Source: Blastochloris sp. (GTDB taxonomy: Bacteria; Verrucomicrobiota; Verrucomicrobiia; Methylacidiphilales; JAAUTS01). From it: DNA of 64,000 bases. Below, piece by piece: positions 1,807 through 50,325 of the stretch. Both the position numbers and the translations under genes were made by a program. The stretch's first letter is position 1. Every line of letters begins with the position of its first letter. Location of the stretch: the NCBI GenBank assembly GCA_034440395.1, contig JAWXBW010000064.1, positions 1,025-65,024 on the forward strand. Reading direction: 5' to 3'. The notes beneath the pieces were generated by a model, which was not told the DNA's origin, made no database searches, and saw only the letters and a list, made by a program, of their open reading frames with translations.

Positions 1807-3957
1807 TCAAGATTCAGCTGCAAGGCTAATCGGAATAATCTGCGGTTCCTGCACTCGGGCAGCGGTGGCGTGGGCGGCTGCTTGGTTTTCTTGTTCGGCT
1901 CGAGCCATGAAGACACCTTGACAACGTAAGGTCGGTTCAGCCTCACCGGGTTTGCGGCGCTCGTGTTTACCGTCGGGCAGGAGGCGGCGGGACTTGACGT
2001 TATCTTTTTTATAGATGCCGATGATTTGTTCCATCACATGTTGTTTGATTTTTGGGTCGTCAAGAGGGAAGATAACCTCGACGCGGCGGCGCAAGTTGCG
2101 GGGCATCCAGTCGGCACTGCCTAGATAGATTTCGTATTTCCCATCATTATCAAATTGGAAAATACGGCTATGCTCGAGAAATTGATCGACGATGCTATAA
2201 ACTTCAATGTTCTCACTGACGTGAGGAATTCCAGGTCTCAGACAGCACGTGCCGCGCACGATAAGATAAATCTTCACGCCGGCGCAGGAAGCTTTGTAAA
2301 GGGCTTGAATGATTTCCATATCCACGAGGGCATTCATTTTGGCAAAAATACCCGCAGGCTTACCTGCCTTGGCGTGTTGTATCTCGCGTTCGATCAGGTT
2401 TAGGAATTTTTCAACCATGTCAAAAGGGGCTACGAGAAGTTTTTTGGAGCCGTGATATTCTGACATGCCAGTGAGGGCGTTAAAGAGAGCAGCGATTTCG
2501 TCGGTTATGGCGGTTTTGGTCGTAAATAAGCCGAGGTCCGTGTAGAAGCGTGCCGTGCTGGGGTGGTAGTTACCCGTGCCTAGGTGAACGTAATGGCGAA
2601 TTCGGTCGTCGTCGCGGCGCACGACGAACATGACCTTACAATGAGTCTTTAAGCCTACCAATCCATACACGACGTGGATGCCGGCATCTTCCATTTGACG
2701 AGCCCAAGCGATGTTATTTGCCTCGTCAAAGCGGGCTTTGAGTTCCACTAAAACGGTCACTTGTTTACCAGCACGAGAGGCGGCGATGAGACCTTTAATA
2801 ATAGGAGAATCCCCGCTAGTGCGGTAGAGCGTCATTTTAACGGCTAAGACGCGAGGGTCGTTGGCAGCTGTTTCTAGAAATTCTACGACGCTGCTAAAAC
2901 TTTCATAAGGGTGGTGGAGTAGAACGTCTTGATGGCGGATGACTTCGAAGATGCTGGCTTCGGTTTGGAAGAGTGGAACGGTGACAGGACTGAAAGGTTT
3001 ATATCTTAAATTAGACAATGTGTCTAACTCCGTCAGCGCAACGAGGCGGAGAAGGTTAATGGGATCCTCAACTAAATAAAGATCTTGCTTGGTGAGCTTA
3101 AATTTTTCTAATAAAAACTGCACCACCGCTATAGGGCAATCATTGGTGATTTCTAATCGCACGGCATTTCCGCGGTTGCGTTTCCTTAATTCTTCTTCAA
3201 TCGTGCGCAGCAGGTTGAGAGCTTCTTCGTCATCGATATAGAGATCGCTGTTCCTCGTCACGCGGAAGGCGTAGGCACCTGACACAGTTACGCCAGGGAA
3301 AAGAAGATGAGCGTGAGACTCAATCAATTGGCTTAGAAAAAGAAAATCATGCACTGTCTCACTGCGCTCGGGGAGTTCGATTAAGCGGTTCAGAACGCGA
3401 GGCACCTGGACGATGGCGTAACGGTGTTCGCCCGGTGCATCGCTGCGCTCAAGTGAAACGATGACGTTGAGGCTTTTGTTCAGGAGCTGGGGGAAGGGAT
3501 GGCTGGGGTCGATGGCTAGGGGAGTTAAGACGGGATAAACTTCCTGCAAGAAATACTCCTTTGCCCATGCACGTTCGTAGTCGGGCATATCCTCTACACG
3601 ATGAAAGCGGATGTTATTTAAATTTAGGGCTGGCACGAGTTGTTCTCGCCAGAGGGTGTATTGATCCTGCACCATTTGCGTGACTCGGTCGTTGATGGAC
3701 TTAAAAATTTCTAAGGCACTCAAACCATCGGGGCCGGGATCGTTGGTTTTGTTTTCGATTTGTTGTTTAATGCCAGCTACACGGATTTCAAAAAACTCAT
3801 CTAAATTCGAGCAAGAAATACAGAGGAATTTTACTCGTTCGAGCAGAGGGTTGCTAGGATCTTGAGCCTCTTCTAAAACACGTTGATTAAATTCTAGCCA
3901 ACTGAGCTCCCGGTTGGAGTAATGGCTGGCTTGGGGTAAATGAGATGAAGCAGGCAT
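1807..3957 (-). CDS. ppk: polyphosphate kinase 1
   Basis: 716 aa. PPK1-typical strings are 'YSNRELSWLEFNQRVLEEA', 'LDEFFEIRVAG' and 'LKTHCKVMFVVRR' (phospho-His region). Length and domain order are typical. Confidence 0.93.
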   Translation of the reverse strand: MPASSHLPQASHYSNRELSWLEFNQRVLEEAQDPSNPLLERVKFLCISCSNLDEFFEIRVAGIKQQIENKTNDPGPDGLSALEIFKSINDRVTQMVQDQYTLWREQLVPALNLNNIRFHRVEDMPDYERAWAKEYFLQEVYPVLTPLAIDPSHPFPQLLNKSLNVIVSLERSDAPGEHRYAIVQVPRVLNRLIELPERSETVHDFLFLSQLIESHAHLLFPGVTVSGAYAFRVTRNSDLYIDDEEALNLLRTIEEELRKRNRGNAVRLEITNDCPIAVVQFLLEKFKLTKQDLYLVEDPINLLRLVALTELDTLSNLRYKPFSPVTVPLFQTEASIFEVIRHQDVLLHHPYESFSSVVEFLETAANDPRVLAVKMTLYRTSGDSPIIKGLIAASRAGKQVTVLVELKARFDEANNIAWARQMEDAGIHVVYGLVGLKTHCKVMFVVRRDDDRIRHYVHLGTGNYHPSTARFYTDLGLFTTKTAITDEIAALFNALTGMSEYHGSKKLLVAPFDMVEKFLNLIEREIQHAKAGKPAGIFAKMNALVDMEIIQALYKASCAGVKIYLIVRGTCCLRPGIPHVSENIEVYSIVDQFLEHSRIFQFDNDGKYEIYLGSADWMPRNLRRRVEVIFPLDDPKIKQHVMEQIIGIYKKDNVKSRRLLPDGKHERRKPGEAEPTLRCQGVFMARAEQENQAAAHATAARVQEPQIIPISLAAES

Positions 3958-7895: not shown

Positions 7896-8232
7896 GAATT
7901 TAAACCTAGGCTAAGTTAATAACTTATCTCGGAACTATTTAAAAAAACGATGGAAATAAATCTACTTCTCTCAACGGGGAAAATAGGTGTTATTAACCAT
8001 GTTTAAGATGTGCTTAGATTCGAGGCACATCAGATTACTAACTTTTAAACCCTCTTCAATACAGCAATAAGGGGGTGATGACGTACACTAAAAAATAATT
8101 GAGAACTAATATCAAAGATCTCATGTGTAATTTGTTAATAACTCATTAATTAAATTGCTTAGTCAATATAATCGTCTTATATATAGATATTCAGGTAAAT
8201 CTCATAGACGAACTAAACTACTCGATACAACT

Positions 8233-8745
8233 ATGAAAAATTTAAGAAAAATATTTAGTACTAGATTTAAAAGAGGCACTGCTCTTGTTGAGTTTGCTCT
8301 GGCTTTCCCCATCTTTATCTTTTCACTTTTTTTCTTGATCGATCTCTGTCGTTACTACTTTATTCAGCAGACATTTTCTCACCAAATACGTCAGACTTTA
8401 CGCACCGCCATCATTTTTGATTCAGACAATCCAGGCGCCGAAATAGTGGCGGGAACACCTAATACGCGTTCTGCTATCATTGAGAAAGTAATAGAAGACT
8501 CAAATTTGCTGAACTTTGACTTAGATGTTAAGTTTGTTGCCACTCCAGCCACGGTAGCAACGCCAACCACAGGTAAAAATGTTTTAGTCACCGTAAGTCC
8601 CGCCGATGGAGGAAAGAAAGACGAACTGCTAACCATCCAAATGGAATATGTGGATTTTAAATTCCTAACGCCATTTGTTGGCAGTTTAGGGTCACAAATT
8701 TTCCCCTTGAAAGCCAGCCTTGCCTTTGCGATTGAGAATATATGA
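8233..8745 (+). CDS. TadE-like pseudopilin / Flp-pilus assembly protein
   Basis: N-terminus 'MKNLRKIFSTRFKRGTALVEFALAFPIFIFSLFF' is the TadE-type prepilin-like leader plus hydrophobic helix. I prefer ATG 8233 to the ORF-track TTG at 8155. The stop overlaps the next start (ATGA). Confidence 0.7.
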   Translation: MKNLRKIFSTRFKRGTALVEFALAFPIFIFSLFFLIDLCRYYFIQQTFSHQIRQTLRTAIIFDSDNPGAEIVAGTPNTRSAIIEKVIEDSNLLNFDLDVKFVATPATVATPTTGKNVLVTVSPADGGKKDELLTIQMEYVDFKFLTPFVGSLGSQIFPLKASLAFAIENI

Positions 8746-9413
8746 AGCGCAAGTCTAATAATAAAGGTCAATCCATGGTAGAGTTGGCTCTCTCCCTGAC
8801 GTTCTTGTTTATCATGACCTTAGGCGTTATTGATTTTGCGCGTATTTTCTCTACGTATCAGCGCATGGTTTCAGTTGGTCGAGAAAGTGGACGTCTTTTT
8901 GTTAAGAGCAATATTAACACGGCCACAACTAATACGACTGTTTTAAGGGATGGTCCCGAAGGTGTTAAAATCAAAGTTTACGACGTAATTGTTAATACGA
9001 TGAAGCCAGATAAACTTGATAGAGAAGGTTCCGTTATTATCTCGGTGCTACGTCGGGTCGATAATGTGTTGCTCGCCACTGCTAGTGACACTCTTTTGCA
9101 AAGAGAAACGGCAGAGTCCGATGATCAGCTGCAGCTTGTCCACCGTTTTATCTTCGATTCCACTCCAGCTACTGGATTTACGCAAAGCAAGATTAACCAA
9201 GTGATGGATGGCACTAAAATTATCGTTTCTGGGCCATCGGGTCCTACCCTCACTCCAGTAGTTACGACTCCTGTGATCAGTGTAAACACAGTACGCTTAG
9301 GTGAAGAATTAATTGTAGTTGAAATGTATTATAAGAACGACATGATTACGGGTATCGATAATTTATTTTCTGCCTTAGCCATAGACCGACTCTACGACCG
9401 CACCATTTTTTAA
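8742..9413 (+). CDS. TadE-like pseudopilin / Flp-pilus assembly protein
   Basis: 'KGQSMVELALSLTFLFIMTLGVIDFARIF' is the TadE-type N-terminal motif. Translationally coupled to the upstream gene. Confidence 0.7.
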   Translation: MKRKSNNKGQSMVELALSLTFLFIMTLGVIDFARIFSTYQRMVSVGRESGRLFVKSNINTATTNTTVLRDGPEGVKIKVYDVIVNTMKPDKLDREGSVIISVLRRVDNVLLATASDTLLQRETAESDDQLQLVHRFIFDSTPATGFTQSKINQVMDGTKIIVSGPSGPTLTPVVTTPVISVNTVRLGEELIVVEMYYKNDMITGIDNLFSALAIDRLYDRTIF

Positions 9414-9428
9414 CCTCTATTCAAGTCT

Positions 9429-12400
9429 ATGAAACATTACCTGCCCACTACTAAAAGTCGTTCAAAGGGACAGATCTTAGTTCTCTTTGCTCTTAGCTTA
9501 GTAGTGATATTAGGTTTTGCTGCGTTGGGCATTGATGCAGGCGGAGCCTACATTACAAAGACCAAGTTAGCTCGCGCCAATGATGCGGCCGCCTTGCGTG
9601 TGGTTAATAATTTTACAGGTGGTCGAGATATAGCGGATGCAGCAGGCCGCCAAAAATATCGTAGAGACATGGCTTTTAATGTCTTCCGAGCTAATATACG
9701 TACGTTTAATGATGGTAACCCAGCATTGGAAACTGACTGGACGTCGATTCCGGGCGTTGCGGCATCGGCTGGACCTCCCCCCGTTTCAGCCGCTGCTGCT
9801 TACTGGGTATTTTCTAAGACCTTTCCTGCAGGCCACCGTAGAGCTGGCGAGATTGACGAGTTTATTATTAAAGAAGACTCTCAGGCCTCCTCTTCTTCCT
9901 CTGCTGCTTTAAAAATCATGGAAGTCGAGATTTCGAGTAAAACATCATACCCTACCTATTTCGCTCGTGCATTTGGTCCTTTAGTGGGTGCAGGTGGTGG
10001 CTTTAACAATGTTGCTATGTCTGAAGCCGCTAAGGCGGCTAAGTATCCCACACTTAACGCTGTTATTATTGACCAATCGGGTTCCATGCTGCTCAATGGC
10101 GGAGCAGCGGTTATGGCAGATGCAGTAGAGGCTTTCGCTAAAGCTTTTGATGAAACCAGTGATCCTTTGATCGTTATTTCATTTTCTTCTACGTACGATA
10201 TCATCTGGCCTGGCATAAATGAAACTACAGGTAGATTTATTAACATTAATGCTTGTTACGGATTAAATACCTACAACGGTGCTGGAGTAGCCGCTGGCAA
10301 GACAAAAATCTACGATGCAGTAAATGCTGTCGCCTACGGTGGGGCGACAAACGCCGCTATCGGTCTTCGCGAAGCGGTTTACCAAGTCGATAACGCTATA
10401 GCTGACTTTAAAATAGCTAACCCTACACTGGCAAATAAGCTTAAGGTCAACTATATATTCATGACGGACGGGAAGTTTAATGCCTTACCTGCCTACGTGC
10501 GTGGACGCGGTTTCGGTATGAATTGGAATCCACCTGCTACATTCGGAAATTCTACTATTCCATCTGGTACGATGGGTCAGGATTTTGGCATCAGCGGATT
10601 TCCCCCTTGGCACTTAAGACGGCCTGTCTTCGGTGGTGGCACTAACTTAACCGCCGATCCTGCTGGATTCTACAAAGATAAGAACTCTGTCCAAACATCT
10701 TTTAAATACTGGGAAAGTGGTAATGTCTCGGCTACACCATCCAGCACCGTTATCTTGGCTGATAAGTTTGCGAATAGTGGTTTTAATCCAGCATTTACGG
10801 GTTGCATAAACGCGGCAGTAGGAGATCAAGATACTAGTCCATTTGCCTCGTGGATGGGTGAGTTTATGGGCGGTGAAGGCGGTGCTGGTTTAGGGGTTGT
10901 TGGCGGTGCTACAGGCGGCACAGCGCGTTGGGCTGTAAATGATGCTTTAGGCACTATGGGAGCTAAAAATTCATGGAATGATACCAATCTAAAAAATGCC
11001 CCTACCAATGCTATTCCTAACTCGACCGTCGTTTTTCCTTATAACGTCGCTATTTCTAGCTTACCAGATCCACCAAATATAGCGACAAGTTGGCCCGTAA
11101 ATTTTGATATTTCAGGTGCCACTATTGATTCCATCACCGGCACTTCCATCGTCCCTCCCAAAATACGAGACGATGCAGCGATTTTGGACACACAATTTAT
11201 TAATGTTATGCGTTTTTGTTATGATCCACGCAACTGGGAAATATGGAAGACGGACGGCGCTGCCGTGTCCGCCATTTTTGATTATGGTGGCAGCGAACCG
11301 TATAGCCCTCTGATTTCTAGGCCTAGGATTATGGTCATGCCACAACTACTTTTAAAGGATGATCCCATACCTTCGTCTGCAAACGACATTCTTGCCGTTG
11401 GTGCGGGTACGAACACCGAACAGCGCAAACGCTTCAACTACCGTCCGGGTGCTCGGGCTTTTGCTAATCATTATAATTCTTTTAGTTACGACAATCGAAC
11501 CACTATCGGCGCGGCAACCAGTTATGACGATCATTTGCTTGGCGTTGGGAAGGCTGCTCATAACTATAGCAATCGAGCCACTTCTACCTTAAAAATAAAA
11601 GATTTTTATCCTAACTTCTCGGTTGGTGGTAATGCCGACCAATTTCCGCCAACGCGTTACCAACCGAAAAAATGGGTCAGAGTAGGCGCCTACTCTCAGT
11701 TTGATATACACACACCTGCGCAAGCAGCAAATAGTACTCAGGTCGGTCAAGGGACTAATTTTGACTATGAATACTCCTCTGGCGTCAGTTCTCCCCCTTC
11801 ACCTCAATTGCCTCTTCTTGAAGCAATTAAGGCGGCTTCCACTTCGCCTTATGATACAACTTTAAACCGGACGGACATAGAGGAATGGGACCGAGTTCAA
11901 AATGCTGCTGACTATTATGTAGACACTTATGAGCCTCAAAAAATTAGTGCCGCAAAGAAATACATGTTGGCAGGTTTTTCTCTACCTCGTTTGCGTGTAG
12001 CACCTCTCATACTGGGAGACGGAATTATTCCTACGGCAACCCCGCGCCCTACTAGAACACCTACGGTAACACCTATCCCAACATCTACTCCAGCACCTAC
12101 GGCAACACCCATCCCAACTGCTACACCTCAGCCCACGCCTACGCCCACAGCTACACCAACTACCACGCCAACTCCCACGCGAACACCAACCATCACGCCA
12201 ACACCGACACGCACACCGACCCGAACTCCCACACGTACACCGACTATCACACCAACACCAACGCGCACGCCGACACCGACTATTACGCCAACGCCGACAC
12301 GTACACCGACTATTACGCCAACCCCAACGCGTACGCCGACACCGACTATTACACCAACGCCCACACGTACGCCTACACCGACCATTACGCCAACGCCCAC

Positions 12401-13268
12401 ACGTACACCCACTATTACACCCACGCCAACGCGGACACCAACGCGGACACCAACGCCGACACGTACGCCGACACGTACGCCGACTATTACACCTACTCCC
12501 ACACGTACGCCTACACCGACCATTACGCCAACGCCGACACGCACACCCACTATTACACCCACGCCGACATCTACACCCACTCCAACTCCAACAAGTACAC
12601 CGACTATAACACCAACGCCGACCCGCACTCCGACAATAACCCCAACACCAACTCCCACAATCACTCCTACCCCAACACCAACTCGCACACCGACCCGGAC
12701 GCCAACGCCGACGCCGACAATTACGCCTACACCGACACGGACTCCGACTAGAACCCCTACTCCAACGCCAACATCCACGCCAACGCCAACGCCAACACGC
12801 ACACCAACTCCGACCCCGACGATAACGCCTACCCCCACACCCGCTGGGACAGAGCAAGTAGCAGTCGTTCCTATTTTTGATGATTATGTAGGCTGGTCGC
12901 AGCTCTACTCTTATAAGCAGGGAAGATGGTTGTATTACAATTTCAACCCTGAAAATAATGCGACCAAAAGAAGCCAAAATGATGCAGTTGATGCTGCTAT
13001 TAAAGAAGAAGCTCGTTGGTTAGTGGCTGCCCAAGCCTCATTTGCGCGGCATGCTCACGAAGCCACCATTTATTGTGTAGGTTTATCTTCCAGCGAATCA
13101 AACATCGATTCAGAAATTTTAAAACAGTTAGCTAATGCCAAAGATGAGACCACCCCTTTTGACTCAACCCAAAAACTAGGAGCTTACTATTTTGCGCCCA
13201 ATGCTGCTGCTGTCACAACGGCCTTTGAAGCTATTGCACGTAAGGCGGGTGCGGTCTTAACGAAGTAA
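9429..13268 (+). CDS. TadG-N-terminal domain / von Willebrand A protein with giant insert and Thr-Pro stalk (1279 aa)
   Basis: N-terminus '[46 protein letters not shown]' is the Tad/TadG-like N-domain. vWA MIDAS 'VIIDQSGSM' (aa 212-220), 'GGATNAA' (aa 304-310) and '[10 protein letters not shown]' (aa 342-351). The vWA-type C-terminal strands 'IYCVGLSS...[20 protein letters not shown]' appear only at aa 1214-1270. Confidence 0.8.
12030..12842 (+). repeat. in-frame (Thr-X)n low-complexity array, ~271 aa, X = Pro >> Arg > Ile > Ser (words such as [10 protein letters not shown] and [12 protein letters not shown])
   Basis: Read directly from the translation of 9429-13268 (aa ~868-1138). This gives 6-nt periodicity ACN-NNN. 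Synonymous codons are scrambled between units (ACG/ACA/ACC/ACT, CCA/CCG/CCC/CCT, CGA/CGC/CGT/CGG). Confidence 0.92.
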
Positions 13269-13295
13269 GTAATTTGCTTAGATTAGGTTTTAGTT

Positions 13296-13322
13296 GAAGG
13301 CTGGGCTTGTTTCCCAGCCTTC
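13296..13322 (+). terminator. stem-loop after the TadG/vWA gene (possible intrinsic terminator or attenuator)
   Basis: Perfect 10-bp stem GAAGGCTGGG / CCCAGCCTTC with a 7-nt loop, 28 nt after the stop. Only a weak T-rich tail follows (ttgctgt). Confidence 0.5.
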
Positions 13323-13352
13323 TTGCTGTCAAGTTCTCAGAATTTTTTAATT

Positions 13353-13736
13353 ATGTCTGTTTATTCCGTTCATTCCCCTCGTGGTCAAGTTTGCCAACAG
13401 TGTCATTTCTCTAATTCTCTATTCTTTCGTATGAAAGGGTTGCTTGGCCGCACAAGTCTTGTCCCATTAGAAGGTCTATGGTTGAAACCTTGTAATAGTA
13501 TCCACATGTTTTTTATGAGGTTTTCCATTGATGCTTTGTTTTTAGATAAGCAACAATGTATTGTGAAAGTTTATCACTCCCTCCCTCCTTGGGCCATCAG
13601 CTCCCTGATTTTTAGAGCAGAATCTGTTTTAGAACTAGCCGCAGGCCGAGCTAATGAGTTAGGTCTCCAGATTGGTGATCAACTTGTTTTTACGGATACC
13701 TCGGATTCCCTTTTGGAGAAAAGTTCTCATGACTAA
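13353..13736 (+). CDS. DUF192 (UPF0127/COG1430-like) protein
   Basis: 'GLLGRTSLVPLEGLWLKPCNSIHMFFMRFSIDALFLDKQ...VLELAAGRANELGLQIGDQLVF' matches the DUF192 pattern as I remember it. I prefer ATG 13353 to the TTG at 13323. The stop overlaps the next start (ATGACTAA). Confidence 0.6.
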   Translation: MSVYSVHSPRGQVCQQCHFSNSLFFRMKGLLGRTSLVPLEGLWLKPCNSIHMFFMRFSIDALFLDKQQCIVKVYHSLPPWAISSLIFRAESVLELAAGRANELGLQIGDQLVFTDTSDSLLEKSSHD

Positions 13737-15171
13737 GAAGTCTTCTCTTCTTGTAGTTGATCTAGACGGAACCTTACTCAAGTCAGATCTTTTGTGGGAA
13801 TGCCTGCTCAGGTTTTTAATCCCGAAAGGATGGCGCATCATACAAGTCCTAGCATGGATTTTTCAAGGAGGGCCGAGTTTACTTAAAGCCCAACTTGCTC
13901 ACCATGTAAAGCTAGACGCTAGTACTTTGCCTTGGAATGAGAGCGTTGTTCTCTTCTGTGAAAAGTGGGTGAGGGAAGGCGGCAGGGTAGTTATCGCTAC
14001 CGCTTCTAATCAAGAACTTACCCAGAAAATTACCCAGCATTTCAGCTTCGTTTCTGTGGTGATCGGAAGCACGTCCACTTGGAACGGTAAAGGAGACCAA
14101 AAAGCTCTGCGTTTAGTCGAGACTTATGGTGTTTCAGGATTCGACTACATGGCAGATAGTTCAGCGGATATTCCTGTCTGGAAAGTTTCGCAGCAAGCAT
14201 GGTTTGTCGGTAGTAAGATGAAGCATCGTAGCTTACAACGATCGTGTGCAGCGGAACTACATCATCTAGCTGAATCAGATCAATCGTTGCACATGGGATT
14301 TTTAAAAGCGATTCGACCCCATCAATGGTTGAAGAATGTTTTAGTTTTCGTTCCTTTGATTGCAGCACATCGCTGGAGCGAGATCATGGTTTGGCAACAA
14401 ACACTACCAGCTTTCTTTTCCCTTTGCTGCATGGCTTCCGCCTCATACCTATGGAATGACATGGCAGATATTGAGGCAGATAGACGCCATCCGGCGAAAA
14501 AACATCGCCCCATTGCTAGCGGTTCACAAGGGATACCAGTGGCCGTTTTGTCAATGTTCGGGTTATTTAGCCTAGGTATCTTAGCGGCATGGTCAGCAGG
14601 ATTAATTGTAGTGCTAGCAAGCTTGGCCTATTTTTTCCTGTCCCTCATCTATACGATAAAAATTAAAACAATTCCCGTTTTTGATGTCCTCTTTCTTTCG
14701 GGCTTATATACTTATCGTATGGTGTTAGGCGGCCTAGCTGCCAGCGTCATGATCTCCCCTTGGTTGCTGGCTTTTTCTACGGCCTTTTTTCTGGGGCTAG
14801 CTTTTCTCAAGAGGTATGTGGAATTAAGTGGATCAGATCCCAAGGAAGCTAACGAGTTGTTTTCGCGCCGGGGCTACGTGCAAGGAGATAGTTTATTTAT
14901 CTTAATTGCAGGACTCTGTTCCAGTTTTTTTTCGATCGTCGTTTTAGCACTCTACCTTGACAGCTCTGCCAGTAAGGTTCTATATCAAAGCCCTGAACGA
15001 TTATGGGGTATTGCGCTGGCTTTACTGGCTTGGAATCTTTACGTCTGGTTCTTAGCCCTTAGAAAAAAAATGTGTGAAGATCCCGTCTGGTTTGCCGCCA
15101 GAGATCCTGTGACTTACGGCCTAGCTTTCCTTAGCCTTCTTTCCATCGCCTTATCCGGCCCACGTGCATGA
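13729..15171 (+). CDS. fusion protein: HAD-superfamily phosphatase domain + UbiA-family polyprenyl-phosphate phosphoribosyltransferase (DPPR-synthase-like)
   Basis: HAD motif I 'LLVVDLDGTLLKSD' at the N-terminus. The UbiA part has 'IRPHQWLKNVLVFVPLIAAH' and 'NDMADIEADRRHPAKKHRPIASG' (NDxxDxxxD), followed by multiple TM helices. ATG 13729 fits better than the upstream track start at 13672. Confidence 0.8.
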   Translation: MTKKSSLLVVDLDGTLLKSDLLWECLLRFLIPKGWRIIQVLAWIFQGGPSLLKAQLAHHVKLDASTLPWNESVVLFCEKWVREGGRVVIATASNQELTQKITQHFSFVSVVIGSTSTWNGKGDQKALRLVETYGVSGFDYMADSSADIPVWKVSQQAWFVGSKMKHRSLQRSCAAELHHLAESDQSLHMGFLKAIRPHQWLKNVLVFVPLIAAHRWSEIMVWQQTLPAFFSLCCMASASYLWNDMADIEADRRHPAKKHRPIASGSQGIPVAVLSMFGLFSLGILAAWSAGLIVVLASLAYFFLSLIYTIKIKTIPVFDVLFLSGLYTYRMVLGGLAASVMISPWLLAFSTAFFLGLAFLKRYVELSGSDPKEANELFSRRGYVQGDSLFILIAGLCSSFFSIVVLALYLDSSASKVLYQSPERLWGIALALLAWNLYVWFLALRKKMCEDPVWFAARDPVTYGLAFLSLLSIALSGPRA

Positions 15172-16481
15172 GTGGAGTTAATAAAACTCTAAGTTCGTGG
15201 GGAGGAAACCAAAGCGTAGGCTCGAAGGTTTACCGCACTTCTTGGAGAAGTGAGCCCTTACCGAAGGTTTCTACGAAGCTACTGGCTTATGGCATGGGGC
15301 GCAGTTACGGCGACTCGTGTCTTTTAAATAACGGGACTTTCATCGAAACGCATGATCTGAATCATTTTATTTCTTTTGATTCATCTCGTGGTCTCATAAG
15401 GGTCGAGGCCGGCTGTACAATGGCTGCATTGTTGCGTTTCTGTGTTCCGCACGGGTGGTTTGCGCCCGTCACGCCAGGGACTAAGTTTGTCACCTTAGGC
15501 GGATGTTTGGCCAATGACATCCACGGGAAAAATCATCACAATGCAGGAAGCTTCGGCTGTTTTGTACCACGTTTCGGATTAAGGCGTTCAGACGGTTCAG
15601 AGCTAGAGTGTAGCCCTGATCGTAACCCTGAGCTGTTTTGTGCGACTATTGGCGGGCTAGGTTTGACTGGGTTAATCCTGTGGTTAGAACTTCAACTTAA
15701 ACCTATTCGCAGCCCGCTGATTTCACAGACGAAAACGTTGTTATCAGGATTAGACTCTTTCTTTGAACATGCGGAAAAAGAAGAAGCTGAATTTGAATAT
15801 TCCGTAGCGTGGTTAGACGTCACGCACAAGGGCAAACCGCGCGGTGTCTTTCTCGCAGGCAATCACGCAAAGCAAGCATCCGCTCTTGAGCACACCTTAC
15901 CTGTCCCTCTTCTTTCCTTACCCTTTCAGTTACCCGATGCGGCCTTGTCTGGTTGGTCTATCGGGTTAATGAATAGCGGCTATTATTTATCAAACGTCTT
16001 CAGTCCGAAGCGTAATGAACTGTTTTACGATTCTTTTTTTTATCCTCTTGATTCCGTAGCTCACTGGAACAGAGCGTATGGGGCGAAAGGGTTGAGACAG
16101 TATCAATTTGTTGTGCCCCGCCAGAATGGGTTGGACGTTTTAGCCGAAGTTTTGGACAAGGTGCAGGTCGCTCGGCAATCGTCATTCCTCACCGTTGTTA
16201 AACTATTTGGAAATAGGCGCTCCCCTGGGATACTGTCCTTTCCGAGAGCAGGCGTCACCGTTTGTTTTGATTTCCCTAACTTGGGTGCTGCCACGGAACG
16301 GCTACTTGATGATCTCGACACCACCGTCTTCTCCTGTGGCGGAGCTCTTTATCCAGCCAAAGACTGTCGCATGAGTCCAGACGCCTTCGAGCGTTCCTTT
16401 CCTAAACACAAAGAGTTTAAAAAATGGATCGACCCAGCCTTTGCTTCAACTTTTTCTCAACGCATAGGTTTAACATCTTAA
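15168..16481 (+). CDS. FAD-binding oxidoreductase, DprE1-like (polyprenyl-phospho-ribose 2'-oxidase-like)
   Basis: 437 aa. 'GMGRSYGDSCL' and 'TLGGCLANDIHGKNHH' are typical of the FAD_binding_4/DprE1 family. ATGA overlap with the upstream gene. Confidence 0.78.
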   Translation: MSGVNKTLSSWGGNQSVGSKVYRTSWRSEPLPKVSTKLLAYGMGRSYGDSCLLNNGTFIETHDLNHFISFDSSRGLIRVEAGCTMAALLRFCVPHGWFAPVTPGTKFVTLGGCLANDIHGKNHHNAGSFGCFVPRFGLRRSDGSELECSPDRNPELFCATIGGLGLTGLILWLELQLKPIRSPLISQTKTLLSGLDSFFEHAEKEEAEFEYSVAWLDVTHKGKPRGVFLAGNHAKQASALEHTLPVPLLSLPFQLPDAALSGWSIGLMNSGYYLSNVFSPKRNELFYDSFFYPLDSVAHWNRAYGAKGLRQYQFVVPRQNGLDVLAEVLDKVQVARQSSFLTVVKLFGNRRSPGILSFPRAGVTVCFDFPNLGAATERLLDDLDTTVFSCGGALYPAKDCRMSPDAFERSFPKHKEFKKWIDPAFASTFSQRIGLTS

Positions 16482-16502
16482 CGCCATTTGTAGGTAAAGA
16501 TC

Positions 16503-17231
16503 ATGAAACACATACTAGTTCTAGGCGCCACCTCAGCCATGGCTCAATCTCTTTGCAAGCTCTATGCAGTTTCGGGTTCACACTTTTATCTGTTAGGCCG
16601 TAATGAACAAAGGCTAAACATCGTGGCCGCAGACTTACTCGTGCATGGGGCGCAAGCGGTTGAAGTTAGGGTGGTTGATTCGTTTCCCCAATTAAAAGCA
16701 GCGGCCGAAGAGGCCTGTCAGCAAGCAGATGGATTAGATTTATTCTTAGCAGCTCAAGGGTCATTGCCTTCACAAGAAATAGTGGAAAAATCTGGTGAAT
16801 CAGTCAGTGAACTTTTTCACGCTAATGCGGTGCAAATCATGGATGCGTGTCTTTGTGTAGCCTCTTTTTTTGAAGCTCAAGGGCACGGAACCTGTGTGGT
16901 AATAGGCTCTGTGGCAGGAGATCGTGGTCGTCGTAGCAACTATCTTTACGGTGCATCAAAGGCTGCACTAGAAGTTTTTTGTGATGGATTGCGTCAACGA
17001 CTTGAACCTAATTGTTCGTTAGTTTTTATCAAGCCAGGTCCCGTTGATACGCCCATGACATCCCATTTAAAGAAGGGGGCACTGTTCAGCACCTCCGAAA
17101 AAGTGGCTAAAGATATTCTCAGCGGAATTGAGCGAGGCAGTGCTGTTGTTTACACGCCTTCTTATTGGAAATGGATCATGCTCGTGATTAAGCTTCTACC
17201 TGATAGCGTAGTAAAACGACTACGTGCTTGA
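16503..17231 (+). CDS. short-chain dehydrogenase/reductase, DprE2-like
   Basis: 242 aa. N-terminal Rossmann 'VLGATSAMAQ', catalytic 'YGASKAAL' (YxxxK) and 'KPGPVDTPM'. The position after the DprE1-like gene matches the dprE1-dprE2 order. Confidence 0.75.
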   Translation: MKHILVLGATSAMAQSLCKLYAVSGSHFYLLGRNEQRLNIVAADLLVHGAQAVEVRVVDSFPQLKAAAEEACQQADGLDLFLAAQGSLPSQEIVEKSGESVSELFHANAVQIMDACLCVASFFEAQGHGTCVVIGSVAGDRGRRSNYLYGASKAALEVFCDGLRQRLEPNCSLVFIKPGPVDTPMTSHLKKGALFSTSEKVAKDILSGIERGSAVVYTPSYWKWIMLVIKLLPDSVVKRLRA

Positions 17232-20200
17232 ACAACCACACAGCTCTGACAATCTCTACTATCTTGAAACTCGAGCCGACACAACTTCCTGAGCAGCACG
17301 ACCCCATCAAAAAAAGCACTCGCTGGTTGTTGATCCTCATTCTATGCCTCGGAGCATTACCACGTTTTATGTGGTCAGATTGGGACGATTTTAAGGGTCA
17401 ACATCCTGACGAGCGACATATCATGATGTGTACGAGCAGCCTAGCTTGGCCCCAGTCTATTGGTCAGTTTCTCAATGAATCAGCATCCCCGTTAAATCCG
17501 CGCAATCGTGGAGCACATTATTTCGCTTATGGAACCTTACCTAGCACCATGCTGAAGGGTCTGACAGAACTTGGCACGGTGCGGGACGGGCTGCAAGTAG
17601 CTAAGTTATCGCGTGGTTTCTCGGCCTTTGCGGATACCTGCGTAATTGGCCTTGTATTCTTACTAGCATGGACGCTGTATCGTCGAGCATCCGTCGCTTT
17701 ACTGGCCGCAGCTTTTTACGCTATGTGTGTACTGCCGATTCAACACGCTCATTTTTTCGTAGTAGATCCGTTTGCAAATTTCTTTGTGACCTTAGCCCTG
17801 ATTTTTCTGGCTCGAGCGTGGCGCAGTGGGGGATGGAAAGACTATGCCGCAACAGGTGTAGCTCTAGGCTTAGCTATCAGTTGTAAAATCTCAGTTGCCA
17901 CTATGGGATTACCCGTGGCACTCGTCGCTCTCATTCCATTAGTGGGAGAAAAGCACAGAATTTCTCAACGTCTTCTCACAGCGATTTTTCGCACAGCCGT
18001 TTTTTCCCTAGCGACAATCATTACGGTTAGATTCGCTTTGCCCGATGCTTTCTCTGGCTTTTGGCCGTGGCAACTTGCACCACGTTGGGTGGCTAACATG
18101 CGAGAGGTTGTCAGTATAAGTACAGGTGTCATTGATATTTTTTTCACGCGTCAGTTCTACAACCGCATTCCCCTACTCTGGCCTTGGTGGAACATGGTGG
18201 CGTGGGGAATGGGGTTAGCACTTGGTCTGGCTGCGTGGGCAGGTTGGTTGAAGGCACTTTGGCAAATCATCACGAAGCGCATCTGGGCCCATAGCGTTTT
18301 AGTGCTTTGGGTGGCGGTAGTATTTTTTCATATGGGCTTTACCTACCAATCAACCCTACGTTACTTCCTCCCCATTTACGCACCCCTTTGTATTTTAGCA
18401 GCAGTTTTTCTTCTGCCGCGCACCTTCACTTACCTGAGTTTTTTGCGAAAAGGACTCGTCCTGAGTGTTTTCTTTTTTACGCTAGCTTGGGCTTTTGCGT
18501 TTCTAGCTATTTATCAAAAACCCATGACGAGAATCGAAGCCTCGAATTGGATTTATGACAACATCCCCAAAGGCAGCTCGCTTGCTTGCGAGCATTGGGA
18601 TGACACGATTCCCTTACCTTTCAATGCAGAACGAACTTCTGAATTTTATCAATACGTCGAGATGCCGCTTTACGTGGTGGATAATCCAGAGAAGCGAGGT
18701 CAGCTCTTAGAGAAGTTAAAGAGCGCAGATTATATTATTCTAGCGAGCCAGAAATTACGGGATTCGATTCCACGTATGCCGCACCGCTACCCCTTGACCA
18801 TACGTTACTATGAGTGGCTAGAGGATGGCACCCTAGGTTTTGATAAAGTCGCAGAATTTACCCGCCCCATGATTTTTTTAGGCTTACCAATCTCAACGCG
18901 AAGTGCGGAAGAAGCCTTCAGCGTTTACGATCATCCGCCCGTGGTCATTTTCAAAAAAACAGAACGCTACGACCCCCAGAAAGTGGTCGATCTTTTCAAT
19001 GCCGTTTCTTTAGATGGCGTAACGGACACTCGCGAGCCAGCGGAAGAATTTAAAGAGCTTCCGATAGAAAAAGTTGTTAAGAACAACCAAGAGGTAGCCA
19101 AGGCAGAACCTAGCGTCTTGCTTAAGCCAGCACGCTGGGCCGCAGCTCAAAATGAAGGGACATGGAGAGACTTCTTTGATCGAAACTCCTTCTCAGTTCG
19201 CTATCCCGTAATTGTCTGGGTGCTACAACTCATACTTTTACAATGGATAGGCTGGGTCTGTTTAGCTCCACTGCTAAAATGTTTGCCTGACCGTGGAGCG
19301 GCTCTTGCCCGACCCCTCGCCATACTTATTCCTTGCTGGATCCTGTGGCTTTTAGCTAGCTCTGGCATCATGAAAAACCAGCCGGCAACGTATTGGCTTA
19401 TTCTATCTTTTTTTATTTTAATCACGGCCAGGATCACATGGGTGAATCGTCGCGAGTGGAAAAATAAGTTTAAAATCACGGGAAACGAGGGCTTAGCGGT
19501 GGAAGGAGTTTTCTGGCTTGGTTTTACCCTCTTTCTCTGTATCCGTTCTTTAAACCCCGACGTATGGCACCACTCTTGGGGTGGGGAAAAGCCCATGGAG
19601 ATGACCTTTCTTTATGGCGTGATTAAATCAGACCATTTTCCGCCCATGAATCCTTGGTATGCGGGTGGCTTTATTAATTATTACTATTTCGGATTTGTTC
19701 TATGCGGAACTTTAATTAAGAGTTTGGGAATTTTACCTGAAGTGGGCTTTAACTTATGCCTAGCAACTTTTTTTGGGATGGCTTGTGCGGCCACCATGTC
19801 TTTTGCCCGAGCATTTCGACCACAAAATTCCCGGCTAGTGGCATTTGCCGCTACGGCCTTTGTCATGCTAATCGGTAACTTGTTCCAAATCCGGTTCATC
19901 TGGAATCGGCTTCAGCTTCTAGGAGCACCAGATCATGACCTGACTTTTCCCATCGTCTCTGATCTAATCCGTGCTGGTTACGGATTATTTCATGTTGCTG
20001 GCGAGGCCACGCTAGGCAACTACCCAGCTGATCTATACTGGGTAGCAGCTCGTGCGATCACGGGGGAAGATGTTGCCCCAGTTACGGAGTTTCCCTACTG
20101 GAGTTTTCTCTACGGTGATTTGCATCCGCATCTCATAGCACTTCCCTACACACTTTGTCTGTTAGGTCTTCTTGTGGCGTGGATTCGCTGTGACTCTTTT

Positions 20201-44368: not shown

Positions 44369-45022
44369 ATGGCAAATATTTTCCCGACTTGGACGAAGTG
44401 GCTACCGCTCAAACTGGTTATCGCAATGCTCTGCCTAGGCACGATGACGGCGGTGGCTGTTACTTATTACTTCACTCCCAAATATACCCGAGTAGGTTAT
44501 CAACCCATCCAACCCGTCAGCTTCGATCATTCCCTACATGTCAACCAACTCGGTATCGACTGCCGTTACTGCCATCAATCGGTTGAGGTATCTGGCACGT
44601 CTAGCGTTCCCTCAACGCAGACCTGCATGACTTGTCATACGCAAATAAAAAAGCAGAGTCCTAAGTTGGAAATTGTTCGCAGTAGTTGGGCTACGGGCGA
44701 GTCTATTCCTTGGGTGAAGATTCACAAAGCGCCTGACTATGTTTATTTCAATCATGCCATTCACGTGAACAGTGGAGTCAGTTGTTACAGTTGCCATGGC
44801 CAGATAAATCAAATGGAGGTCGTGTGGCATGACCAGCCGCAAAGCATGGGCTGGTGTTTAGAATGTCACCGCCATCCTGAAGGTAATGTTCGTCCTAAGG
44901 ATCAGGTCTATAACATGGACTGGCGAGCCGAGAGTCCTTCGGTGCAACGTAAAGAAGGTCAGAAATTTGTAAAGGAATGGAATATTAACCCGCCCGTAAA
45001 TTGTGCAGCCTGCCATCGCTAA
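44369..45022 (+). CDS. actA: Alternative Complex III subunit ActA, pentahaem cytochrome c
   Basis: 217 aa with an N-terminal TM anchor. Five CxxCH motifs are present: CRYCH, CMTCH, CYSCH, CLECH and CAACH. Confidence 0.85.
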   Translation: MANIFPTWTKWLPLKLVIAMLCLGTMTAVAVTYYFTPKYTRVGYQPIQPVSFDHSLHVNQLGIDCRYCHQSVEVSGTSSVPSTQTCMTCHTQIKKQSPKLEIVRSSWATGESIPWVKIHKAPDYVYFNHAIHVNSGVSCYSCHGQINQMEVVWHDQPQSMGWCLECHRHPEGNVRPKDQVYNMDWRAESPSVQRKEGQKFVKEWNINPPVNCAACHR

Positions 45023-45028
45023 GACCTC

Positions 45029-48000
45029 ATGAAACGCATTGTTGAACATCCTCCAGAAACTGGTGCCGCAAAAGCTTATTGGCGCAGTGTCGAAGACTTT
45101 TCCCATACAGAACAATTTCAAGGTTGGCTTAAGACCGAATTCCCTCAGGGTGCGGCCGAGTTCTGGGGAGATGGTGTTTCTCGTCGGAGTTTCTTACGTT
45201 TGATGGGAGCTTCCATGGCTTTGGCTGGGCTGGGCTTGTCAGCCTGTCGTCGGCCTGAGGCGCATATTTTACCTTTCACAAAAACGCCGGAGTGGCAGAT
45301 CCCCGGTAAAACCTTAAACTACGCCACAAGCCTACCCCGTCGTAATGGTGGCGCACCTCTCCTCATTACGAGCTACAGTGGTCGTCCTATTAAGATAGAA
45401 GGTAATCCTTTGCACGAGGCCTGTAAAGGTAAGAGCGACTCCCTAGCCCAGGCTTCGATTCTCAATCTTTATGACCCTGACCGCTCCAACAGGTTTCTAA
45501 AAAACGGTAAAAATATTTCTTCTGCAGATGCTATCAAAGCTCTCGCTGAATGGAAAAAATCATGGCAAGCCAATCAAGGCAAAGGTTTAGCTATTCTTTC
45601 TGAAGATAATCTTTCTCCGACGGAAGATCGTCTCCAAGCAGAGTTCTCCGCTAAATATCCTGCCGCCGTGCGTGCCGTTTATGAGCCTGCGACTACAGGT
45701 TTTGCTCAAGCCGCAATCGAAACCGCTTACGGTAAAGGCTCCATTATCCGCTACAATTACGAGAAGGCTAAAGTCATTCTCTCCCTCGATGCGGATTTCC
45801 TCACAGGCGATGAAGCTACTTTAGCTTCCGTGCGTGGTTTTGCTGATGGCCGGCGCATGGAGAATGCTGATTCCCCGATGAACCGCCTCTACGCTATCGA
45901 GAGTCGTTACACCAACACAGGAGCCGCCGCAGATCACCGCCAACGCTTGCCTGCCAGCCATATCGCAGCCGTGGCAGCTAAATTAGCAGAACTAGTTGGC
46001 GCAAAAAGTTTGCCTATCTTCCAAGCCCTTCCTGAGTTGCAAATGGATCCAAAGTGGATCATAGAAGCGGCCAAGGATTTAATGTCAGCAGAAGGCAGAG
46101 CACTCGTGGTAGCTGGATCCAATCAGCCCGCCAGCGTTCATCTCGCTGTCGCCGCCATCAACGAAGCGTTAAAGGCTCAAGGCATCACCTTTGAAATTTA
46201 CAAAAGACCCCGACCAACATCACTCAGCATCGTTGAGCTTGCCGACGTAATCAAGTCTGGACAAATCACCGATCTCGTCATCCTCGGTTGTAACCCTGTT
46301 TATAACGCTCCCGCCGATTTGAACTGGACCGAGCTACAGAAATCCGTTAACACGGTCATTCGCCTCGGTGCCTATGAAGACGAGACTGCAGCTCTTTCCA
46401 CGTGGCATTTACCTCAAGCGCATTATCTCGAAACATGGGGAGATTCGGTATTACAAGATGGCTCCCACGGTTGCATGCAGCCTTTAATTCTGCCTTTGTA
46501 CGATGGCCTTTCCTCTTCCCAATTTTTAGCCTACCTCCTCGATGCCCCTGCAGGAGTAGATAAAGTCTGGGTAGACGGCCCCGAGCTTGTCCAAGAAACT
46601 TTTAAAACCAAGGTTGCCGCTTTTGCCACGACCTACGCTTTCGATAATGCCTGGAGTCTTTTCGTGCGCGACGGATTTCTAAAAGATTCCAAACCTAGAG
46701 CGCAAGCTTCGCCATTTGTTTTTGCTGGTGCCAGCATGATCGCTGAGACACGTATCGCCAGCCCGCAAGCATTGAGTAAAGACAATCTCGAAGTGGTTTT
46801 TATCACGGATACAAAAGTGGATGACGGTCGCTATGTTAACAACGGTTGGCTTCAAGAGTTACCCGATGGCATCACAAAATTGACCTGGGATAACGCTGCC
46901 CTCATGAGTGCTAAAACGGCGGATGAACTTGGAATTTATTCTGGTGTTCACGTTAAGGGAATAGTTGCGGGTTTAACTGATGCGGGCATTTACTTTTCCG
47001 ACGTGATTACTCTCACCGTGGATGGACGCAGTTTGGATATCCCTTTCCTCATCGTGCCAGGACATCCTGACTACACCCTTACCTTACCACTCGGCTATGG
47101 CCATGAGAAAACAGGACGCGTTGGCCAAGGCGTCGGCTTCAACGCTTACAAACTACGCACTAGCCAAGCCCCTGCTATTTTAACTAATGCCACAGTCATT
47201 AAAACTTCCGCCCCGCGCTATAAATTCGCCATTACTCAAGAGCATTGGAGCATGGAAGGCCGTGATATCGTCCGTGAAGCTCCCATCGCTTATTATAAAG
47301 AAAACCCCGGATTCGTCCGAGCTCTCGGTATCGAAAGTCATACCCCAGAGAATATTACTTTCTACAAATCACCACCTTTTGATTATGAAAAGTATCATCA
47401 GTGGGGCATGTCCATTGATTTAACTACTTGCATCGGTTGCAACGCTTGTGTCATTGCTTGCCAGAGTGAAAACAATATAGCTATCGTCGGTAAAGACCAA
47501 GTCGCTAAAGGCCGTGAACTAAGTTGGATCCGGATCGACCGTTACTTCTCTGGTTCCCAACGTGACATTGAAATGGGTAAAGGCGTTATCCCGAGTGATC
47601 CTGAGATGATTCTTCAACCCGTTACCTGTTTGCACTGCGAAAACGCACCATGCGAGACCGTTTGCCCGGTCAATGCCACCGTCCACAATGAGGAAGGTCT
47701 TAACGTCATGGTCTATAACCGTTGCATCGGTACACGTTACTGCGCCAACAATTGCCCCTACAAAGTTCGCCGCTTTAATTGGTTTGATTACAATCAACGT
47801 CAACTCGACCAGCTTTATTGGGGCCCACTCGGTCCGAAAAAGGTCGAAGAAACTATCAAGCTTTCTAAGAACCCTAATGTCTCTGTTCGTATGCGCGGCG
47901 TCATGGAAAAATGTACATTCTGCGTGCAACGGATCGAGACTGCTAAGATCGATCATAAAATCCTGACCAAGCGCACAGAGCGTAAAATCCCTACCGATAG

Positions 48001-48343
48001 TCTGCAAGTGGCCTGCCAACAGGCTTGCCCAGCAGACGCCATTGTCTTTGGTGATCTATCCGATCCTAACAGCCGTGTGACAAAACTTAAATCACGTGAG
48101 CTTGACTACAGCCTATTAGATTATTTAAACACCAGACCCCGTCTAACCTATCTAGCTCGTGTCCGTAATCCTAACATGCGTATGCCTGGTGCAGAACTAG
48201 TTGGAATGAGCCTTGTTAATGCTCGTATCCATCACCATGCTGAAACAGAAGGGCACGGAGAAGAAGGCGCAGCACACGGCGACACTAAAGCTCATGGACA
48301 TGAGGCCGAAGCAAAACCAGCGGAACATGGATCTAAACATTAA
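45029..48343 (+). CDS. actB: Alternative Complex III subunit ActB (molybdopterin-oxidoreductase-like + 4Fe-4S ferredoxin-like fusion)
   Basis: 1104 aa. Tat signal '[23 protein letters not shown]'. Fe-S motifs are '[16 protein letters not shown]', '[14 protein letters not shown]', '[19 protein letters not shown]' and 'CTFCVQR...[14 protein letters not shown]'. Confidence 0.9.
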
Positions 48344-48348
48344 GTGAT

Positions 48349-49776: not shown

Positions 49777-49782
49777 TCGCAT

Positions 49783-50325
49783 ATGAAAGAGGATCAGAAA
49801 AAAATTCACGGTATTGGAGCCGAATTTAACAACGCTCAAGAACTCTATGTAGCCGCTAAAAAACTGCGCGCATCAGGTTTCAAGCGGTGGGACGTTTTTT
49901 CTCCATACCCTATTCACGGCATGGATGACGCCATGGGACTCCCTAACTCTAAAGTCTCCTTCTTCTCTCTTTGTGGAGGCATCGTGGGAGCCGCCACAGC
50001 CTTCTTCCTTATTTGGTACACCTCAGGGGTGGAGTATCCCTTAGTAGTGCAAGGTAAACCGCACTTTGCCTTTGAGCCGACTTTTCCAGTCTTTTTTGAA
50101 ATAACGATTCTTCTGACGGCGTTCTTCACCGTGGGAAGTATGTTGGTCTTAAATTTCTTGCCCCGCTATTATCACCCCGTTTTCAACTGGGATCGTTTTG
50201 CTAAAGTTACGGACGATAAATTTTTTGCCGTGATCGAGTCGTCGGATCCGCTCTTTCATGAGGCAAAAACAAAAGCACTTTTGGAGGATTTAGGTGGCAC
50301 GCATGTGACGCTCATTGAGGAATAA
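49783..50325 (+). CDS. actD: Alternative Complex III subunit ActD (DUF3341)
   Basis: 180 aa. 'IHGIGAEFNNAQELYVAAKKLRASGFKRWDVFSPYPIHGMDDAMG' is followed by two TM helices, which is the typical ActD layout. Confidence 0.75.
   Translation: MKEDQKKIHGIGAEFNNAQELYVAAKKLRASGFKRWDVFSPYPIHGMDDAMGLPNSKVSFFSLCGGIVGAATAFFLIWYTSGVEYPLVVQGKPHFAFEPTFPVFFEITILLTAFFTVGSMLVLNFLPRYYHPVFNWDRFAKVTDDKFFAVIESSDPLFHEAKTKALLEDLGGTHVTLIEE

Follow-up and report, generated by a model that had tools for sequence, protein, structure and literature searches.

A probable TadG-class minor pilin whose vWA domain is interrupted by a long insert carrying a Thr-X array

The question raised by this locus is whether a domain of the von Willebrand factor A (vWA) type can be interrupted by several hundred residues and still close into a single fold. 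The window, i.e. the whole stretch of 64,000 nucleotides analysed here (contig JAWXBW010000064.1 of assembly GCA_034440395.1, Blastochloris sp., placed by GTDB in the Verrucomicrobiota), contains a long open reading frame (ORF) in which the initial annotation saw the first three quarters of such a fold and, beyond a large insertion, its closing elements. The motifs on which that description was built do lie where it placed them, with DQSGSM at residue 215, GGATNAA at 304, FMTDGKFN at 344, IYCVGLSS at 1214 and a fifth motif at 1251. The reading preferred here, which is given a probability of roughly 0.78, is that the product of the ORF is a modular minor pilin of the TadG class, the large subunit of a Tad/Flp pilus-tip complex, and that its vWA domain, which carries a metal ion-dependent adhesion site (MIDAS), is interrupted by ~790 residues and closes as one fold.

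Homology provides the first evidence for closure. A word-index homology search with the array-deleted protein (without the repetitive Thr-X array described below) found only a near-identical strain variant, and an exhaustive HMMER search with the same query was needed to reach relatives. Against a library of 1.84 billion (1.84e9) representative proteins, this search gave 497 matches at E ≤1e-3. Among the best 150 of them, which make up the domain table, canonical TadG-vWA proteins of 400-450 residues match the query in three blocks, at residues ~10-80, ~166-300 and ~1190-1272, and the third block corresponds to the last ~80 residues of the canonical proteins. Against the relatives P0040, P0041, P0068 and P0123, the C-terminal piece scores higher than any other stretch (whole-library E 1e-7 to 1e-13), and a score of this order against several TadG-vWA proteins indicates a match beyond chance. 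In a MAFFT alignment (A1), the β4 motif (F/M-T-D) and the β5 motif (I/V-Y-x-I/V-G-L) align across 124 relatives. The MIDAS is complete, comprising D215, S217 and S219 (the DxSxS motif), T307 and D347, and across 143 sequences conservation of these columns is 90% or higher.

A profile of the family, when compared with PDB sequences, matched vWA domains at E-values from 3e-21 to 1e-6. In 4rck_A, profile positions 147-259 fall on chain residues 18-135 and positions 352-417 on chain residues 144-216; the two matched pieces are 9 residues apart in the solved chain and ~90 profile positions apart in the family. Mfa5 (6tnj) was matched in a single stretch, at profile positions 141-424.

Structure prediction leads to the same result. 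In the AlphaFold2 model of the array-deleted protein (1005 residues, 150-sequence alignment), the mean predicted local distance difference test score (pLDDT) is 64 and the predicted template modelling score (pTM) is 0.69. The pilin helix, the head, the first part of the vWA domain and the last 125 residues score high (pLDDT 80-97 for the two vWA pieces), and the insert scores mostly below 50, with moderate values at residues 390-470 and 633-745. Foldseek matched this model to vWA domains, among them those of SpaC and ANTXR2 and integrin I domains, over ~147 columns, with a target-normalised template modelling score (TMt) of ~0.5, the alignment being limited because the insert cannot be bridged. 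A second, insert-deleted model, in which residues 190-362 were joined to residues 1150-1279, gave a single closed vWA fold with a pLDDT of 89.9 and a pTM of 0.89. The N-terminal part of this joined construct runs through β1 (208-215), α1, β2, β3, helices, β4 (339-346) and a short strand (357-359), and the C-terminal part continues with a β-hairpin (1155-1172), a 32-residue α5 (1178-1209), β5 (1213-1219), α6 (1228-1234), β6 (1252-1256) and α7 (1259-1274). Foldseek aligned the construct with complete vWA domains over 275-295 columns, with a TMt of 0.74-0.78 for ANTXR1/2 and TEM8, and placed the S. sanguinis minor pilin PilB (7b7p) within the top five matches. The increase in target coverage from ~0.5 to ~0.78 is as expected if the C-terminal piece supplies α5 to α7. 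A complete Rossmann-like vWA fold, β1 to α7, built from both pieces is supported by these models.

It might instead be supposed that the C-terminal ~90-130 residues are an independent domain and that the N-terminal vWA is truncated or degenerate, since Pfam sees only the first ~60 residues of the vWA domain, below threshold, and finds no vWA match in the C-terminal piece scanned alone. However, that piece is homologous to the ends of canonical TadG-vWA proteins, where it follows the N-terminal part after ~100 residues, and it is placed by the family profile on the second matched stretch of 4rck_A. The joined construct is, moreover, predicted as one domain that matches complete vWA folds. Contradicted by both the homology and the model, an independent domain is very unlikely. 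Homology, structure prediction and fold search thus agree with the original proposal that the first three quarters of the domain end at FMTDGKFN and that the closing elements lie at residues ~1214-1270. A large insert within the vWA domain also stands, but its limits, initially drawn at residues 352-1190 (~840 residues), are corrected to ~361-1149 (~790 residues), because the hairpin at 1155-1172 and the helix at 1178-1209, upstream of IYCVGL, belong to the family core.

The assignment to the TadG class comes from the N-terminus and the gene neighbourhood. PF13400 (Tad, TadE/G-like) matches residues 14-58 with an E-value of 3.4e-8 and 34.1 bits, against a gathering cut-off of 22.3 bits, and AlphaFold2 predicts a helix at residues 13-60 (pLDDT 79-95). 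Prepilin-peptidase sites, as summarised for CpaL, consist of a Gly and a following hydrophobic stretch, with the pattern G/A-x4-F/E. In the leader of the query, SRSKG14-QILVL-F20ALSL, the Gly and the Phe at +6 agree with the family consensus GQxLxxFA. Two genes for TadE-like minor pilins lie directly 5' of the ORF on the same strand, the second overlapping the first by 4 nt (Table 1). The first is listed from a TTG codon and contains the motif G-TALV-E-F; its true start is likely the ATG at 8233 (MKNLRK...). The TadE-TadE-TadG cassette recurs around relatives of the query, including all three contexts checked in the subfamily of long relatives described below (P0004, P0005 and P0007), and the JGI annotation of some long relatives is "Flp pilus assembly protein TadG". 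In these features the query resembles Aggregatibacter TadG and Caulobacter CpaL, which have a Tad-type leader pilin module, a C-terminal vWA domain with a MIDAS and co-encoded TadE/F proteins. Proteins of the TadG/CpaL type have been modelled at the pilus tip together with TadE/F-type minor pilins (PMC11870444; PMC12075869), and TadG-type proteins as the backbone of the Tad tip complex, with modular C-terminal domains (PMC12075869).

Several points weigh against the reading as a tip subunit with a closed vWA domain. Pfam VWA_2 covers only residues 212-268 of the whole protein, at 16.4 bits against a gathering score of 27 bits, and the joined construct, at 20.7 bits, is still below that score. 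At the putative cleavage Gly, residue +5 is Leu rather than Glu, and processing there is therefore putative only. No Flp major pilin, TadV/CpaA, CpaF/TadA ATPase, TadB/C or RcpA/CpaC secretin was found in the Pfam-scanned genes of the window (ORFs to ~51 kb), unlike in TadG/CpaL systems, which have tad locus genes; the machinery is accordingly either encoded elsewhere, or the cassette is orphaned. The position of the insert over the MIDAS face comes from vWA topology, since the model of the insert itself is of low confidence. Finally, the location at the tip, the function as an adhesin and the roles of the insert and the array are inferred.

The insert starts ~12 residues after β4 and D347, and a break shortly past these elements places it in the β4-α5 loop. 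This loop is one of the three that form the MIDAS face of a vWA domain, so that the insert should emerge on the ligand-binding face. Among the 124 aligned relatives, the spacing from β4 to β5 is at most 130 residues in 63 (median 105, which is the hairpin and α5 alone), 131-249 in 23 and 250-576 in 38. In the query it is 594 residues without the array and 868 with it. Judged from these sequences, the β4-β5 interval is a continuum in the family, and the architecture is not unique. The impression that the architecture was unfamiliar is therefore not sustained, given the 38 relatives with the longest spacing and the split vWA domain already published for CpaL, described as the TadG orthologue of Caulobacter crescentus. 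CpaL combines a pilin-like module with a single vWA domain split into two segments by an insert at residues 204-383, which contains two β-rich domains (β-barrels) and precedes the MIDAS Thr and Asp (PMC11870444). The two proteins differ in the site of the break, which in CpaL lies early and separates the DxSxS segment from the remainder of the vWA and in the query follows β4 and the MIDAS Asp. The query is contiguous from DxSxS to TDG (132 residues), and the CpaL-type split site is not matched. The insert of the query is also ~4x longer than that of CpaL, is predicted with no confident fold and has the 270-residue Thr-X array inside it.

Closer to the query is a subfamily of long TadG proteins of 683-900 residues, of metagenomic origin (e.g. 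P0005-P0023), which have the same β4-α5 insertion site and a conserved insert core. The core is ~100 residues long, with the consensus NYFPGGRxYAN ... SDFYPxYTxGG, and was delimited in alignment A3. A hidden Markov model (HMM) of it matches 21 long relatives and no short ones, and invariant and near-invariant residues are kept in these 21 despite overall identities of 17-31%. The inserts of the long subfamily are 320-514 residues long, against 868 in the query, and no Thr/Pro array is present in the long relatives listed, apart from the query's own allele. The insert is thus lineage-specific, a question raised at the outset, only as regards the array and its exact sequence; the insertion site and the core are shared with relatives. 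A second motif at the base of the insert, YVRGxGFG ... PxWH ... V(F/Y)GG, is common to the query, P0004 and P0005. The core is absent from other long relatives, e.g. P0040, P0074 and P0099, and different inserts were therefore probably taken up at the site on more than one occasion.

The searches recognised no domain in the insert. Pfam and NCBIfam scans of the whole protein, the insert, the C-terminal piece and the joined construct returned none there (Pfam none at E ≤10), in keeping with the description of residues 352-867 as unrecognised sequence, and the profile of the insert core gave nothing significant in PDB or Pfam. A PDB sequence search with the whole protein matched only Pro/Thr-rich or Asn/Pro-rich low-complexity regions. 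The term Gly/Asn/Ser-rich, applied previously to residues 352-867, overstates what is a mild compositional bias: the 516 residues before the array contain 10% Ala, 9.5% Gly, 8% Ser, 8% Pro, 7% Thr and 7% Asn. The insert core appears to be without prior description. One relative with 51% identity, P0002, was considered as a truncated form and rejected, as its contig becomes implausible right after FMTDGKFN and then ends. At positions 3255-3373 of its locus (L005), just past that motif, the sequence switches to an Arg/Ser/Pro-rich, GC-rich reading; a chimeric unitig, or one broken where the insert begins, is the probable cause, and the contig is uninformative on the insert.

The array that follows the non-repetitive part of the insert is 270 residues long, and 130 of 135 alternate positions in it are Thr, the intervening ones being mostly Pro (88), Arg (22) or Ile (15); its DNA repeats are imperfect, with periods of 12-138 nt. 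Its only strong match among PDB sequences is the Pro/Thr-rich linker of the glycoside hydrolase AaBglC (8zvk). The likeness is one of composition: linkers of this type join domains in series, whereas the array lies within a domain and both its ends return to the same fold. If extended, it would have a contour length of up to ~80-90 nm (an estimate at ~0.31-0.34 nm per residue). The initial picture of a module tethered to the face of the vWA domain is not retained. No linker separates β4 from the non-repetitive part of the insert, and the array is accordingly a closed loop back to the domain, without free swing, rather than a tether. Two long minus-strand ORFs (331 and 236 residues, Gly/Val/Arg/Cys-rich) lie inside the array, at window positions 11982-12977; they mirror the repeat and are almost certainly not genes.

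Other alleles show that the array is polymorphic. In the strain variant P0001, which is 99% identical and whose gene is cut by a contig end, the array is 320 residues long against 270 in the query, the excess being one in-frame block of 50 residues. A second allele (P0003/L004) is found on a contig that starts inside the array, immediately before the C-terminal vWA piece. The reading frame is preserved through ~2.4 kb in the three alleles. Repeat arrays are known to break assemblies, and the long ORF might on that ground be regarded as an artefact, e.g. a repeat-induced mis-join of the 5' part of a TadG gene to an unrelated 3' end; one related contig does end within the array, and that of P0002 is nonsensical after FMTDGKFN. 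Nevertheless, the array is crossed in frame by an independent metagenome contig whose flanks are identical and whose array differs in length, and the 3' end codes for precisely that part of this domain family which the N-terminal piece lacks, which makes a mis-join exceedingly improbable.

A further possibility is that the insert and the array are neutral expansions of a permissive surface loop. Most of the insert is modelled with low confidence and contains no detected domain, its length and sequence vary widely among relatives, and the array differs by 50 residues between strains that are 99% identical, all of which would fit such expansion. It is less easily reconciled with a core kept across the 21 long relatives at such low identity, with the insert-base motif common to P0004 and P0005, or with a frame held over three alleles. 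Changes in a MIDAS loop of a vWA domain are, in addition, unlikely to be neutral for ligand binding. Neutral expansion as an account of the whole insert is considered unlikely; it is possible for the array and less so for the conserved core.

Comparison of window positions 12756-14468 with positions 1-1717 of L004 shows how the second allele differs. The C-terminal piece has 72% protein identity, with DNA identity of 53-88% per 60-nt bin, and from ~13343 on, through the DUF192 and HAD-UbiA genes, the DNA is 97-100% identical to the window. The boundary lies just beyond a hairpin at 13296-13322. So sharp a change in identity points to allele replacement of the gene for the tip protein between otherwise near-identical genomes, and suggests, from the sequences of these alleles, that the tip protein is a target of diversifying exchange. 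In the pair of strains with 99% identity, counts of synonymous and non-synonymous differences in TadG, set against those in adjacent genes, were unremarkable.

Inserted arms flank the MIDAS face in the vWA domains of SpaC, a tip adhesin of sortase pili (6m48/6m3y), and of Mfa5, the tip protein of type V pili (6tnj), both among the fold and profile matches. They are, as the query would be on the preferred reading, tip proteins with vWA adhesin domains that tolerate inserts, but they belong to other pilus systems with other anchoring, and their arms are short structured β elements in place of hundreds of residues and a low-complexity array. PilB of S. sanguinis (7b7p) likewise combines a pilin module with a grafted vWA module containing a MIDAS, and this vWA module has been shown experimentally to be an adhesin (PMC8179133). 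Unlike the query, PilB is of the type IVa pilin class (IPR012902 leader) and not Tad, is only ~14% identical, and as a 461-residue precursor has no space for an insert of hundreds of residues.

On the preferred reading, that of a TadG-class tip subunit with a closed vWA domain, the three-gene cassette would produce the TadG-type protein together with the two TadE-like minor pilins. The prepilin-like leader and hydrophobic helix would anchor the protein in the pilus, with processing at about G14, and the processed protein and the two TadE-like proteins would prime or cap a Tad pilus. The C-terminal 130 residues would supply the hairpin, α5, β5, α6, β6 and α7, closing the vWA domain, whose MIDAS face may bind a surface or ligand, with the insert adding specificity. 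By analogy with the arms of Gram-positive tip-adhesin vWA domains, the insert is most plausibly a specificity or accessory binding element. It may be thought of as two layers, the first being the ~510 residues that are partly common to the long TadG subfamily and include the ~100-residue core, and the second the lineage-specific (Thr-X)135 array, a long and probably extended loop of strain-variable length that could serve as a spacer or shield.

The genes downstream of TadG offer a different role for the array. In order, they are a DUF192 gene, an overlapping HAD-UbiA fusion, genes resembling those for the oxidase DprE1 and the reductase DprE2, and a PMT_2/DUF2298 gene for a GT-C glycosyltransferase. 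In NCBIfam these genes match best to decaprenyl-phosphate phosphoribosyltransferase, DprE1 and DprE2, in no case reaching the equivalog cut-off, and the closest named homologues of the GT-C protein (55-59% identity) are from metagenome-assembled genomes (MAGs) of Verrucomicrobia. By its sequence, the set looks like a pathway for a lipid-linked donor of the arabinofuranose type with its transferase, outside the Actinobacteria. In Pseudomonas, group IV pilins are arabinosylated by TfpW, with a DprE1/DprE2 pathway and a GT-C enzyme (10.1101/2020.04.19.049825), and by analogy the array might be O-glycosylated by the downstream gene set, giving a mucin-like arabinosylated loop at the pilus tip. Besides this precedent, the sugar genes lie directly downstream of TadG on the same strand, and both of the other alleles with an array share this arrangement, which is absent beside three relatives without one. 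However, the array-bearing alleles are all of one species-level lineage, and their co-occurrence with the sugar genes thus counts as a single case (n=1). Around a GT-C relative with 61% identity, the HAD-UbiA/DprE1/DprE2/GT-C block occurs with other glycosyltransferases and GLF (UDP-galactopyranose mutase) and with no Tad genes nearby, two further GT-C relatives have neither the sugar block nor Tad genes, and a strong hairpin separates TadG from DUF192. Conservation of the block without Tad genes points to a cell-envelope glycan module that merely adjoins TadG here, and glycosylation of the array by these genes is considered distinctly unlikely.

It is a comparably long shot that the array inside a closed tip vWA fold is itself the functional element, as a heavily O-glycosylated loop or as a store of hidden length. 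If so, a loop of mucin type, to which the neighbouring DprE1/DprE2-type pathway and GT-C enzyme might add arabinose, would shield or tune the MIDAS face, or the ~80-90 nm of hidden contour would be released when pulling parts the two halves of the vWA domain, and the tip adhesin would work as a mechanical fuse or sensor. Strains could in that case differ in this property through allele replacement and variation in array length.

Evidence is growing that proteins of the TadG/CpaL type form the customisable tips of Tad pili, where they take part in adhesion, surface sensing and predation, and the question is how their specificity diversifies. In the query and ~40 long relatives, the MIDAS-adjacent β4-α5 loop is a recurrent site of large insertions, and the query is the extreme member of a previously undescribed long TadG subfamily in which a known design is extended. 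What is new here is the insertion site, the conserved insert core and the presence of a Thr-X array inside a domain. Apparently, a low-complexity loop of great length can be accommodated within a vWA fold. The locus extends the known design with current understanding intact, and it offers candidates for structural work.

Table 1. Positions in the window of the TadG-class ORF, its parts and the neighbouring features
Feature	Position	Strand	Basis
TadE-like minor pilin gene 1	8155..8745	+	Pfam TadE PF07811, E 4.3e-9
TadE-like minor pilin gene 2	8742..9413	+	Pfam TadE PF07811, E 8.8e-10; leader ...NKG/QSMVEL
Probable TadG-class modular minor pilin, whole ORF	9429..13268	+	ATG start, 1279 aa; Pfam and homology
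Prepilin-like leader (SKG14/QILVLF20) and hydrophobic α1, aa 1-60	9429..9608	+	Pfam Tad PF13400 and AlphaFold2
Pilin-like head (helices, then β-sheet), aa 61-205	9609..10043	+	AlphaFold2 strands 123-129, 142-151, 164-175, 194-205
vWA N-terminal part (β1-β4), aa 208-360	10050..10508	+	MIDAS, weak Pfam VWA_2, pLDDT ~90-97, Foldseek
Non-repetitive insert part, aa 361-868	10509..12032	+	No Pfam match; mostly low-confidence model
Conserved insert core, aa 661-763	11409..11717	+	Alignment A3 and HMM built from A3
(Thr-X)135 array, aa 869-1138	12033..12842	+	Sequence repeat
vWA C-terminal part, aa 1150-1279	12876..13265	+	pLDDT 80-98; homology to canonical TadG-vWA C-termini
Perfect 10-bp inverted repeat GAAGGCTGGG / CCCAGCCTTC, 7-nt loop	13296..13322	+	Read from sequence
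DUF192 gene	13354..13736	+	Pfam DUF192, E 3.5e-18
HAD-UbiA fusion, DprE1-like FAD (flavin adenine dinucleotide) oxidase, DprE2-like SDR (short-chain dehydrogenase/reductase), 1458-aa PMT_2 + DUF2298/Chlor_Arch_YYY GT-C	13672-21604	+	Pfam, NCBIfam

The inverted repeat begins 28 nt past the TadG stop codon and resembles a terminator without a clean T tract. A consensus scan did not flag it, and Rfam and promoter/terminator scans were uninformative. The DUF192 gene and the start of the HAD-UbiA gene share 8 nt. A DUF192 gene also stands directly 3' of TadG in the contexts of P0004 and P0007, two of the three checked in the long subfamily, with an overlap of 4 nt in one of them, and in the alleles L001 and L004; it does not do so in the P0005 context. 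The TadE-TadE-TadG cassette may thus have in DUF192 an accessory that has gone unrecognised.

A search of the genome collection with the single TadG protein found one distant TadG, in a Verrucomicrobiia MAG (L002); a Patescibacteria match in the same scan was rejected as spurious, having no ORF beneath it. Together with the homologues of the GT-C protein, the Verrucomicrobiia match makes a verrucomicrobial genome the probable source. Upstream of the TadE genes, on the opposite strand, are helicase-like, inosine monophosphate dehydrogenase, polyphosphate kinase and radical-SAM genes. The window also contains genes of ordinary metabolism, including squalene/phytoene synthase genes and a radical-SAM DUF3463 gene (617-1633), and, at 44369-50935, a cluster resembling alternative complex III, with a multihaem cytochrome c, an Fe-S subunit, NrfD, ActD and cytochrome c.

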